Assembly (NCBI GenBank): GCA_963716255.1
Contig: OY970303.1
Span: 288,001 to 352,000 of the forward strand
Direction: 5' to 3'
Length of the DNA stretch: 64,000 nucleotides
Source of the DNA: an uncultured Gemmatimonadales bacterium
Lineage (GTDB): Bacteria; Gemmatimonadota; Gemmatimonadetes; Longimicrobiales; Longimicrobiaceae
The position numbers and the translations under genes are program-made. Of the stretch, positions 5,160-24,044 are shown one piece after another; positions within the stretch are counted from its first letter, which is position 1, and each line of letters begins with the position of its first letter. Under the pieces are notes generated by a model. That model worked only from the letters and a program-made list of their open reading frames with translations, was not told the origin of the DNA and made no database searches.

Positions 5160-5288
5160 GCGTGAGGGATTCCGGCCCGGAGGGGCGAGACCCGCGGGCA
5201 GTTTCGCGGGGCTCGACTCCGTTACGCACGGTTGTTTCGTGCGTTACGGAGCCGAAGCCCGACCCCGGCGCCAGCCGGGGGCACGCCC
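5160..5288 (-). repeat. family A structured repeat, copy 1 (129 bp)
   Basis: GCGTGAGGGAT...AGCCCGACCCCGGCGCCAGCCGGGGGCACGCCC on the + strand; matches five other copies. Confidence 0.95.
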
Positions 5289-5316
5289 GGATCCGGCTGT
5301 TCGACCGGATCCGTCC

Positions 5317-6057
5317 TCAGTACGCGGAGATGGTCATGCGCAGCTGCTCGCGGAACGCGCGCGGGGCGCCGTCGATGGTGCCGGGCGTGAACTTCATCTG
5401 CATGGCGATGAACAGGTAGTAGTCGTCCACCGGCCTGGACCCGCTGGTCTCGCCGACGCCCGCCCACAGCACGGTGCCGGCGCGGTCCACCAGCAGGTCC
5501 ACGCTCCCCACCCGGGAGCCCTTCGTGCCCGCATCGCCCATGCCCTCGTAGCTGGATTCCATCTGGGCGGCCATCTGCAGGTAGCTGCGGACGACGGCCA
5601 GGTTGCGGACGTGGGGGAGGCAGAACCGGACGGGGTGGTCCGCGGGGAGCTCTCCGCCGCCGCCCAGGTCCACCCAGAAGAACATGCGCTCGCGCTGCGG
5701 GTGCGAGTCCAGGTACGCGTTTGCGACCCCGAGGAGCCGCTGCTGGGCGGGCGCGGGGAGGTTGCTCCCGAGCACCTGCACGCCGGGGTTCGCGCCGGCG
5801 CTGTCGGTCGTCAGCAGGAACACGCCGGCGGGCGGCTGCTGCACGGCGCTGCGCGCGACCACCCGCAGGACGGCGGCCATGGTGTCCAGCCCGGGCGCGT
5901 AGCTCGCGGTGCCGGGGAAGCTCCCCGCCGGGCGCTCGCCGCACACCGGCTCACGCGGGTAGCGCTGCTGGGCGGAGGCGGCGGCCGACGCGGCGGCGAG
6001 GAGGGCGAGAGCGAGAGCGAAGGAAGCGGCGGCGCGGGCGAGCGGGTTTCGGTGCAT
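5317..6057 (-). CDS. secreted protein with TonB C-terminal-like domain
   Basis: Signal peptide (ASA-Q); C-terminus VDLLVDRAGTV...TSGSRPVD...MKFTPGTIDGAP resembles TonB_C. Confidence 0.6.
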   Translation of the reverse strand: MHRNPLARAAASFALALALLAAASAAASAQQRYPREPVCGERPAGSFPGTASYAPGLDTMAAVLRVVARSAVQQPPAGVFLLTTDSAGANPGVQVLGSNLPAPAQQRLLGVANAYLDSHPQRERMFFWVDLGGGGELPADHPVRFCLPHVRNLAVVRSYLQMAAQMESSYEGMGDAGTKGSRVGSVDLLVDRAGTVLWAGVGETSGSRPVDDYYLFIAMQMKFTPGTIDGAPRAFREQLRMTISAY

Positions 6058-6175
6058 GGGAGCGGAAGGCGAAAAGGAAGCGGAGGGCACAGAATGGCGG
6101 TGCGGCGCGGGCGAATGCCTGCCGGGGTGCATAGATGCGTCAAGCGAGGTGAAATGGCAAGACGTGCGGGAACCC

Positions 6176-6306
6176 GCGTGAGGGATGCGCGCCCGGAGGG
6201 CCGAGACCCGCTAGCGGTTCCGTCGGGGCTCGGCTGCGTGGGGAACGGTGGTATCGTTCCCCACGCAGCGCGCAGCCCGACCCGAGCGCCAGCGAGGGGC
6301 ACGCCC
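6176..6306 (-). repeat. family A structured repeat, copy 2 (diverged)
   Basis: Same termini; stems replaced by compensatory sequence (GCTGCGTGGGGAACG-GTGGTAT-CGTTCCCCACGCAGC). Confidence 0.85.
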
Positions 6307-6326
6307 AACCCCGCAGTTCAAAGCCG

Positions 6327-7733
6327 TTAGAAGTCCGCGCTGCCCGGCGTCCTCGGGTACGGGATGACGTCGCGGATGTTTGCCATGCCGCTGGCGTACA
6401 TGACGGCCCGCTCGAAGCCCAGCCCGAACCCGGCGTGCGGCACCGTGCCGTAGCGGCGCAGGTCGCGGTACCACCAGTACGGCTCCCGCGGCAGCCCCAT
6501 CTCGTCCATGCGCGCGTCCAGCACGTCCAGCCGCTCCTCGCGCTGCGACCCGCCGATGATCTCGCCGATGCCGGGGGCCAGCACGTCCATGGCGGCCACG
6601 GTGCGGCCGTCCTCGTTCATGCGCATGTAGAAGGACTTGATGTCCTTGGGGTAGTCGGTGACCACGATGGGGCCGCCCACGTGCTCCTCGGTGAGCCAGC
6701 GCTCGTGCTCGGACTGGAGGTCCAATCCCCAGTCCACCGGGAACTCGAACTTCCTCCCCGAAGCCCTGAGCACCGCCACCGCCTCGGTGTACGTCATGCG
6801 CTCGAACGACGAATCCACCAGCCGCTCCAGCCGCTCCACCACCCCCTTCTGGACGCGGTCGTCGAAGAACTTCATGTCGTCGCCGCGCTCCTCCAGCAGC
6901 GCCCGGAAGATGTACTTGACGAAGTCCTCGGCCAGCTGCGCGTTGTCGGACAGGTCGGCGAAGGCGACCTCCGGCTCGATCATCCAGAACTCGGCCAGGT
7001 GCCGCGAGGTGTTGGAGTTCTCGGCGCGGAAGGTGGGCCCGAAGGTGTACACGTTGGAGAGCGCCTGGCAGTACGCTTCCACGTTGAGCTGCCCGGAGAC
7101 GGTGAGGCTGGCGCCCGCGCCGAAGAAGTCCTGCGCGAAGTCCACCTCGCCGCCGGGGGTGCGCGGCAGGTTCACCAGGTCCAGCGTGGACACCCGGAAC
7201 ATCTGCCCGGCGCCCTCGGCGTCGCTGGTGGTGATGATGGGCGTGTGCACCCAGAAGAAGCGCCGCTCGTGGAAGAAGCGGTGGGTGGCCATGGCGAGCG
7301 CGTTCCGCACGCGCGCCACCGCCCCGAAGGTGTTGGTGCGCGGCCGCAGGTGGGCCACCTCGCGCAGGAACTCGAAGGAGTGCTGCTTGGGCTGGATGGG
7401 GTAGGTCTCGGGATCGTCCACCCACCCCACCACCTCCACCGACCCGGCCCTGACCTCCACCGGCTGCGGGCGCCCGGGCGTGGCCACCAGCTCGCCGGCG
7501 ACGGTCACCGAGCAGCCGGCGGTGAGGCGCTGCACCTCGGCGGTGTAGTTGGGGAGGTCGCCCCCGGCCACCACCTGGATGGCGTCCTGGCACGAGCCGT
7601 CGTGCACGTTGACGAAGGAGATCCCGGCCTTGGAGTCGCGGCGGGTGCGCACCCACCCCTGCACGACCACCCGCTCCCCCGGCTGGACCTTCCCCTCCAG
7701 GAGGTCGGCGATCATCGAGCGCTGCTTCGACAT
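6327..7733 (-). CDS. asnS: asparagine--tRNA ligase
   Basis: N-terminal OB fold ([10 protein letters not shown]), [47 protein letters not shown]. Confidence 0.98.
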
Positions 7734-23608: not shown

Positions 23609-23722
23609 GACGTTCCCTGTTGGGGTGAGGTCGCCGGGCCGGGAAGCGATACGAGGCCGGGCGGGGTGCTGACAGAATGCAGCGTGGTACGAGGAAACGC
23701 CAGGGAGGTTCCCCGGGGAGAA

Positions 23723-23754
23723 CGAAGTGCGAAAGTGCGGGAGTGCGAAAGTGC
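23723..23754. repeat. 4x 8-bp tandem repeat NNNAGTGC
   Basis: CGAAGTGC GAAAGTGC GGGAGTGC GAAAGTGC. Confidence 0.7.
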
Positions 23755-23850
23755 GGAGGGGGAGCGGCGGAAAATCCGGACGATGCAGGATGGTGCACCA
23801 CCGGTGCAGAATGGTGCAGCGGCCCGTTAGGGCGCGGCAGATGCGAAAGC

Positions 23851-23878
23851 GGCACCGGGCGGAGGTCCGCCCGGTGCC
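23851..23878 (-). terminator. GC-rich hairpin, probable terminator
   Basis: GGCACCGGGCGGA-GG-TCCGCCCGGTGCC perfect stem, followed by GCTTT on the minus strand. Confidence 0.55.
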
Positions 23879-23916
23879 GCTTGTACCTGCTGTAGCCTGC
23901 TGTCCACCGCGGCCCC

Positions 23917-24044
23917 GCGTGAGGGATTTCGGCCCGAAGGGGCGAGACCCCGCGCAGTTTGCGGGGGCTCGACTCCGTTAAGCAGCGTTGTTTGCTGCTT
24001 TACGGAGCCGAAGCCCGACCCCGGCGCCAGCCGGGGACACGCCC
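23917..24044 (-). repeat. family A structured repeat, copy 6
   Basis: Same scaffold with its own stem, AAGCAGC-GTTGTTT-GCTGCTT. Confidence 0.95.

Follow-up and report, generated by a model that had tools for sequence, protein, structure and literature searches.

What is a 129-nucleotide (nt) element that recurs six times in one stretch of a bacterial chromosome, with hairpin stems that differ from copy to copy and yet stay complementary? The stretch, referred to here as the window, is 64,000 nt of DNA from an uncultured Gemmatimonadales bacterium of the family Longimicrobiaceae (contig OY970303.1, positions 288,001 to 352,000). The original prediction, which read the element on the GGGCGT strand, proposed a structured RNA or 3' untranslated region (3'UTR) element, or else a non-autonomous mobile element. 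We lean, with moderate confidence, towards the view that it is an intergenic repeat of the Flavo-1 superfamily, similar to repetitive extragenic palindromic (REP) sequences, with a branched single-stranded DNA (ssDNA) fold on the opposite strand (GCGTGA…CACGCCC), that it is rewritten in place by gene conversion, and that it would present polymerases travelling on that strand with a barrier or a landing site. All six copies were recovered, with lengths of 128-131 nt and with the stem variants listed for them. They are given here with the strand on which GCGTGA, the likely folded strand, is read; the helices P2 to P4 are defined below.

5160-5288, + strand: copy 1; 29 nt separate its GGGCGT end from the stop of a minus-strand gene (5317-5946).
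6176-6306, + strand: copy 2, from a minor subfamily in which P2 has tandem G·A pairs and the P3/P4 arms are replaced; the stop of asnS (6327-7715) is 21 nt away.
14230-14358, - strand: copy 3; a gene start, not a stop, lies opposite its GGGCGT end.
19094-19222, - strand: copy 4; 18 nt past the stop of the gene at 18621-19076.
21276-21404, + strand: copy 5, identical to copy 3 and the reference for helix coordinates; 12 nt from the stop of the gene at 21416-23608.
23917-24044, + strand: copy 6; 57 nt from the stop of the gene at 24101-24991.

A profile built from these six copies gave 866 nhmmer matches in the 8.42-Mb chromosome (73% GC), of which 786 have both termini and 725 are distinct; with a modal length of 129 nt, the repeat makes up 1.2% of the genome. 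The asparagine-tRNA ligase encoded in the window has its closest named relatives in Longimicrobiaceae (Gemmatimonadota). The family was found in all eight genomes of the genus, and among related genera one has two copies on a single contig and another has a 160-170-nt form. The exact pattern of the 129-nt form had no match in 200 other genomes of the phylum, and this pattern also missed the longer form in genome G021. As expected of high-copy extragenic palindromic repeats, 784 of the 786 copies are intergenic, with gene boundaries taken from our own calls (5,490 genes, some nonribosomal peptide synthetase (NRPS) genes being missed). In the window no Rfam match is as high as the cut-off of its family, and six sub-threshold matches in 4900-6600 are miRNA-type hairpin noise.

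The claim that the copies follow stop codons in the sense orientation holds only in part. By our gene calls, a same-strand stop precedes the GGGCGT end by 12-57 nt in five of the six window copies, copy 3 being without one, and throughout the chromosome this end is tight to gene boundaries, with 469 of 516 sense-upstream stops no more than 60 nt away. The sense orientation, however, is an effect of the window. Genome-wide, 274 copies lie in convergent, 47 in divergent and 463 in co-directional spacers, and in the last class the GGGCGT strand is sense in 242 cases and antisense in 221 (p = 0.35). Such random orientation was what the original prediction itself had named as evidence against a 3'UTR RNA.

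Covariation defines six helices, with a three-way junction of P1, P3 and P2 and with the hairpins P6, P5 and P4 enclosed by P3. Their coordinates in copy 5 are as follows, with P4 and P5 arm types counted among 700 parsed copies and P6 parsed in 771 copies (15 unparsed).

21276-21280 with 21398-21402, + strand: P1 closing helix, GCGTG/CACGC in 756 and compensatory GCATG/CATGC in 9 of 770 copies; part of the three-way junction common to Flavo-1, phage and plasmid homologues, in which P1 also occurs as GCGTT/AACGC and GCGTC/GACGC.
21282-21291 with 21368-21376, + strand: P3, with a fixed A·G mismatch; closes the inner four-way junction.
21292-21300, + strand: P6 mini-hairpin with a c(GNA)g triloop (GAA 648, GGA 96, GCA 9, GTA 1, GGCA 13, other 4).
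21302-21331, + strand: P5 hairpin, with an A·G mismatch (G·A in 653 of 700) and an exchangeable inner arm of 27 types.
21333-21367, + strand: P4 long hairpin, with an exchangeable inner arm (18 distinct fully paired 7-bp arms); short or absent in plasmid homologues.
21379-21396, + strand: P2 hairpin, with a C-G-closed loop, mostly GCCA, GCA, GACA or GTCA.

In an alignment of 41 copies, 96.2% of cells pair, compared with 32-46% in slid controls, and two-sided change was seen at 18 of 46 pairs, with 190 two-sided changes to 2 one-sided ones. The covariation score was reached by 0 of 500 shuffles, which is not a probability because the copies are related. The covariation noticed among six copies is thus strong in a larger alignment, and it supports a single-stranded fold as the target of selection or of copying.

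Which strand folds, and as which molecule, can be asked of the same copies. The fixed mismatches are C·T on the GGGCGT strand but G·A on the GCGTGA strand. The hairpin described as a kept C-UNCG-G tetraloop reads as c(GNA)g on the GCGTGA strand in 754 of 771 copies; the tetraloop is lost in 70, and in 53 of these the P6 stem is altered in the register of the triloop, such that UNCG closure disappears while compensatory change preserves c(GNA)g (13 copies have a GGCA loop). The P2 loops on this strand are mostly GNNA or GNA, not GNRA (GCCA 514, GCA 64, GACA 19, GTCA 19, GCCC 41, others 43), and loops of the c(GNA)g and c(GNNA)g types are stable in DNA. Outside P6, 22,285 cells are Watson-Crick, 48 are G·T and 38 are A·C, without an excess of wobble pairs on either strand. 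Minimum-energy folds of the GCGTGA strand with DNA parameters recover P3 in 660 and P5 in 656 of 700 copies, compared with 464 and 427 for the GGGCGT strand; with RNA parameters the counts fall to 133 and 131 for the GCGTGA strand and to 38 and 51 for the other. The energy model did not reproduce the P6 triloop in any mode, and P6 and the count of all helices were left out of this comparison. Because of the G·A mismatches, the c(GNA)g loops, the ratio of two-sided to one-sided changes, the DNA-parameter folds and the lack of a transcription-strand bias, we consider it likely that the folded strand is GCGTGA…CACGCCC and that the folded molecule is DNA.

A structured RNA, whether a 3'UTR stabiliser, a terminator or a small RNA, is what Rfam's entry for Flavo-1 (RF01705) supposes, a family listed since 2010 as an RNA without assigned function. 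It would fit the nearness of stop codons, the preference for convergent spacers and the UNCG loop that 701 of 771 copies can form, and also the GGGCGT strand being the coding one in plasmid leading regions and in 37 of 50 larger viral loci. Yet the even orientation in co-directional spacers is not that of a transcribed signal, the loops and mismatches follow rules that suit DNA of the other strand, one-sided changes of the G·U type are nearly absent, and RNA parameters miss P3 and P5, the covarying helices that only DNA parameters on the opposite strand recover. Matches to Flavo-1 in F. psychrophilum likewise lie sense, antisense or outside transcripts without distinction, according to the available text of PMC9723704. 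Unstranded RNA contigs of relatives show depth peaks at the repeat, as a pile-up from many copies would give, and these peaks are silent on strand and ends. We therefore regard a structured RNA on the GGGCGT strand as improbable.

How did one repeat come to occupy so many sites? Comparison with congeners showed that the sites are old and that their contents are exchanged in place. Three congeners provided 71 copies from ~0.73 Mb, and anchoring succeeded for 65 of them; this genome shares 55 of these sites, has a degenerate copy at one and remnants at three, and is without the element at six. Orthologous copies are 87.7% identical, random pairs 86.5%, and in the closest genome the flanks are 96.3% identical whereas the elements are 89.9% identical. 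The same P4 arm was found in 8 of 53 orthologous pairs (4.4 expected) and the same P5 arm in 13 of 53 (14.8 expected), and the type of the P4 arm is independent of that of the P5 arm (V 0.156; permutations 0.131, maximum 0.163; n = 572). One local duplication surrounds a YhcG gene, and its two copies already differ in P2 and P5. Because most sites are shared yet orthologous copies are as different as random pairs, we conclude that hairpins are swapped in place, probably through gene conversion or template switching. The G000 site orthologous to L062:18278 holds a palindromic remnant with two opposed P2/P1 ends, as if an inverted pair had lost its middle, and some other sites retain only the P2 end.

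The prediction of a non-autonomous repeat without a local transposase is supported by these data, while active transposition has little in its favour, as target duplications are absent (flank match of 4.83 nt, 4.82 nt when shuffled) and most sites are common to several species. An AACNGC-like motif on both sides was rejected as a target duplication, being the same in 8 of 74 cases. None of the genes proposed as neighbours, HUH or REP-associated tyrosine transposase (RAYT), DUF559 or reverse transcriptase genes, is tied to the 129-nt repeat. The genome has no Y1/RAYT gene, and the four found in five relatives are flanked by other repeats, none by this one. It also has no small GIY-YIG gene, its two GIY-YIG matches lying in frames of 397 and 1,240 amino acids (aa). 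The single reverse transcriptase gene was rejected as a mobiliser, with no copy listed between genome positions 1,010,000 and 1,022,000, as was the one YhcG/DUF1016 gene, which lies between two copies here and is found in 0 of 4 congeners. At that locus (G000:C1 ~1596500-1597950; L343:850-2330) the gene stands between two direct ~230-nt copies, each including the element, and repeat-assisted gene capture is possible. Protein clustering gave no recurring neighbour gene in the genome, in phages or in mainly Bacteroidota loci, and long gene-free flanks held nothing tied to the repeat. An integron attC was rejected, since the P1 core varies (GTG, GTT, GTC) and the neighbours are housekeeping genes. 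Nor is the repeat a miniature inverted-repeat transposable element, as it neither shares terminal inverted repeats with an insertion sequence nor has target-site duplications; a 10-copy insertion sequence that adjoins seven copies has unrelated ends and inserts in a neighbouring repeat with a 4-bp duplication. This insertion sequence, presumably IS5-like, encodes a 371-aa transposase (G000:C1:109537-110652 and nine other places) and sits mostly at one site within the DUF559-type repeat described next.

Hairpins of a second repeat family, which flanks DUF559 genes, form composite units with the 129-nt repeat, as in the window at the following position.

21227-21250, strand not assigned: hairpin of the DUF559-flanking repeat family, joined to the 129-nt repeat on one side only.

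An accessory hairpin stands beside 404 copies, on the GCGTGA side only, and a DUF559-type hairpin lies on this side of 268 of the 786 copies and on the other side of none. These associations bear on the possibility that the repeat is non-autonomous DNA mobilised in trans and still seeded by a small nuclease, for example by hitchhiking on DUF559-associated hairpins in a composite resembling bacterial interspersed mosaic elements (BIMEs) or REP doublets forming hairpins (REPINs). Such DNA could well have the same ssDNA fold, with mobility as its main function. Some 800 sites must have been colonised, and six of the 65 anchored sites are without the element in this genome; 313 of 443 DUF559-type hairpins have a copy no more than 300 nt away, on the same side each time, DUF559 genes occur in 7 of 8 congeners, and all 23 pairs of copies less than 400 nt apart are inverted in the same manner. 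Against this, 0 of 20 DUF559 genes are flanked by the 129-nt repeat whereas 15 of 20 are flanked by a CCCTCYCC hairpin repeat, for which reason the DUF559 nuclease was rejected as the mobiliser, and the missing RAYT, GIY-YIG and recurring neighbour genes, the missing target duplications and the age of most sites point the same way. We judge continuing mobilisation in trans to be unlikely.

A DUF559 nuclease gene at G000:C1:125188-125565 (L002:2189-2566) lies between inverted CCCTCYCC hairpin repeats, as do 15 of its 20 homologues in relatives, in an arrangement like a REP/RAYT pair with a different enzyme; the repeat also occurs in the window at 13209-13263 and 21227-21250. A further structured family, at 13345-13432 and 55013-55141 of the window and with ~90-120 strong matches genome-wide, has a P5-type module (GAGAC-stem-loop-GGCTC) with an A·G mismatch and the same loops. 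From 25396 to 64000, the minus strand of the window holds a large multi-module NRPS-like gene cluster with ~3.3-kb repeats and without the 129-nt element.

With REP, BIME and REPIN sequences and their RAYT, and with the NTS/SRM repeats and their Ssn nuclease, as far as these are described in the available part of PMC11893778, the repeat has much in common: hundreds of intergenic copies that favour convergent spacers and the 3' ends of genes, an arrangement in mosaic clusters, hairpins of ssDNA and no target duplication. It differs in that a 129-nt branched fold of six helices takes the place of a 20-40-nt hairpin, in that neither a Y1/RAYT gene nor a small GIY-YIG gene is flanked by the repeat, and in having homologues on plasmids and phages.

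The original prediction likened the termini to those of Flavo-1-type Bacteroidota repeats, and the published alignment of Weinberg 2010 (PMC2864571) bears this out. On the same strand, the termini there are GCGT[G/T]AGGGAT … AGCCCGACC (as RNA, GCGUKAGGGAU … AGCCCGACC), the outer helix has the same A·G mismatch, and both elements are intergenic, multi-copy and randomly oriented. Flavo-1, however, has one interrupted inner stem where this repeat has three inner hairpins (P6, P5 and P4), belongs to a phylum other than Gemmatimonadota and was described as RNA, while the evidence here points to DNA; its Rfam model also ends before P2/P1. At the 42-bit gathering cut-off RF01705 has no match in the genome or the window, although it does match the loci L076 and L088. 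A model that we built from 41 Longimicrobiaceae copies only, R1, matches L076 on the same strand (24.8 bits, E 0.015) and L074 at 34.9 bits and leaves L088, L226 and L227 unmatched, so that it finds one of two true RF01705 matches; phage, Paraburkholderia and Phenylobacterium elements are matched at 41-59 bits. From this bridging by R1 and the absence of an RF01705 match, the 129-nt repeat appears by sequence to be a relative of Flavo-1 and not a member by Rfam's test.

Patterns of the outer junction were found in 16, 28 and 81 viral stretches (one of the 16 a chance match) and at 131 loci in the 2 parts of GTDB covered out of 64, which gives an estimate of ~4,400 for the whole; of the 80 titles listed, nearly all were Bacteroidota. 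In mainly Bacteroidota chromosomal loci, the orientation to transcription is even (20:26). Among 21 microvirus contigs, of which 10 were confirmed by Pfam capsid or Rep matches and the rest grouped with them because their genes look alike, 8 have the GCGTGA strand as the coding strand, normally that of the virion, and 13 have it as the opposite strand, split by lineage. In many phage contigs (L242, L247, L254, L265, L274, L275, L286, L296, L300, L305, L065, L076, L087), a Flavo-1-type copy starts within ~20 nt of, or overlaps, the stop of a gene that looks terminase-like.

R1 also matches elements on conjugative plasmids, with two copies in the F plasmid (34.4 and 23.3 bits), five Ralstonia copies at ~49 bits, and IncN and Burkholderia copies. 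The F copies lie ~470 nt before the starts of ygeA and ssb, one in each of the duplicated blocks holding Frpo1 and Frpo2, which the available text of PMC9849209 describes as single-strand promoters of F. The F copy folds on the GCGTGA strand only (z -2.6, compared with -0.1). In E. coli it was found at 4,828 plasmid places and 60 chromosomal ones, in 2,264 of 5,426 genomes, and the Ralstonia copy has matches in 4,094 plasmid records, of which 3,190 are conjugative. As read from gene layout, 11 of the 12 backbones that could be evaluated would transfer the GCGTGA strand, which suggests that plasmids carry the fold on the strand they transfer. These were F-type, Ralstonia pB1903 (five copies), Moraxella (four and two copies), p5482 (two), pBF9343, pVNTG4, two IncN-type plasmids, Xanthomonas (a weak match), a region of pPUV-14 resembling an integrative and conjugative element, and Burkholderia, with Vibrio harveyi p2 as the exception. 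The records were hand-picked from the match lists (~16 of several thousand), and pMMCAT, which could not be oriented, was left out.

These homologues share the leading regions and the strand of the Frpo and ssi (single-strand initiation) promoters of F and ColIb-P9. They lie outside those elements, however, the F homologue starting ~95 nt beyond ssiD as listed in the supplement of PMC11541004, and they overlap none of the ssiD/Frpo, ssiE and ColIb sequences given there; they have no evident promoter boxes. Nor are they ssp2, a leading-region ssDNA stem-loop unlike this motif that was shown to be a roadblock in the available part of bioRxiv 10.64898/2026.01.09.698686; the accessible part of PMC12672017 is a further source on leading-region single-strand promoters and roadblocks. 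On IncN-type plasmids as many as 4-5 homologues precede leading operons, those of ardA and ccg among them, which likens them by location to the conserved upstream (CUP) repeats, although these are promoter regions of double-stranded DNA bound by ArdK in the available text of PMC6289460. In the open-licence literature we found no description of the 129-nt family or of a link between Flavo-1 and plasmids; papers of 1991-2004 on ssi and CUP may describe the plasmid motif. The CUP repeats were reportedly described by Delver and Belogurov in 1997. Upstream of an antirestriction gene at ~56.5 kb of F (L314:8513, - strand), in the region of a described class 2 single-strand promoter, there is a weak likeness to the 3' end of the motif, without an R1 match, and at the place where F has this motif, ColIb-P9 has a different structured block, also conserved, after two of its three ssi elements (L342:12957 and 19990, - strand).

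A priming signal of the ssi or primosome-assembly type, ancestral to plasmids and phages and amplified later, would explain the agreement with the inferred transferred strand, the single copies in microviruses and other phages, and the presence of GNA-loop hairpins also in the F-G spacer of phiX174, which we take to be the primosome-assembly site. However, R1 has no match in phiX174, the motif is on the non-coding strand in most of the 21 microvirus contigs, the chromosome shows no replichore bias, and the F homologues are outside the ssiD and ssiE sequences in the supplement of PMC11541004. We find a priming signal no less improbable than a structured RNA.

How might a branched ssDNA fold act? 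A polymerase that copies or transcribes the transferred strand of a leading region would reach the foot of P1 just past the last stop codon of an operon, and in F the next single-strand promoter would follow shortly. The fold could then end read-through or delay synthesis of the complementary strand. We offer this barrier role as a tentative guess. On this model, the signal would be oriented and probably functional on incoming plasmid DNA and would have been amplified in some chromosomes as a REP-like repeat, where copies, homogenised by conversion, would take up the fold only for short times and play no more than weak REP-like roles.

Several observations weigh against the reading of the repeat as an ssDNA fold with such a role. 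Both strands of the chromosomal copies fold well (z of about -5 to -6.5), and part of the covariation is arm flipping, which template switching can yield without selection, so that it is not pure evidence of selection. The enrichment in convergent spacers (274 of 784, with 47 divergent) and the short distance to stop codons would suit an RNA as well, and there is no leading- or lagging-strand bias in the chromosome (415 of 786, p = 0.13). The agreement of 11 of 12 backbones comes from gene layout, not from mapped nick sites, in plasmids that are not fully independent, and in V. harveyi p2 the GCGTGA strand looks opposite to the expected transferred strand. In ColIb-P9 the motif is at 0 of 3 ssi blocks, and such promoters therefore do not need it. 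In F, according to the available part of bioRxiv 10.64898/2026.01.09.698686, the stall was mapped at ssp2, not at this motif, and early conversions of ~4% as against 24-48% are explained by priming. Finally, because both orientations occur in microviruses, no single ssDNA role covers all.

More broadly, it is possible, though we put it forward as doubtful, that Flavo-1, the unannotated motif of plasmid leading regions (next to the Frpo promoters in F, and in IncN, Burkholderia, Moraxella and Bacteroides), the single phage copies and the 800-copy repeat form one cross-phylum family of branched ssDNA signals. Such signals would be read by a conserved host enzyme and would time strand conversion or end transcription on incoming DNA, and several lineages would have made them a self-homogenising chromosomal repeat without a transposase of its own.

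Based on our findings, a repeat whose sites are old but whose hairpins turn over faster than neighbouring genes diverge is a clear case for gene conversion among bacterial repeats. The family also provides covariation pointing to ssDNA, and it ties Flavo-1 to a conserved element in F, the best-studied conjugative plasmid. Because related elements adjoin the early-gene promoters of F, a chromosomal repeat of an uncultured bacterium becomes testable there, and the question of what Flavo-1 does moves to laboratory E. coli, where strand conversion and the expression of early genes have published read-outs.

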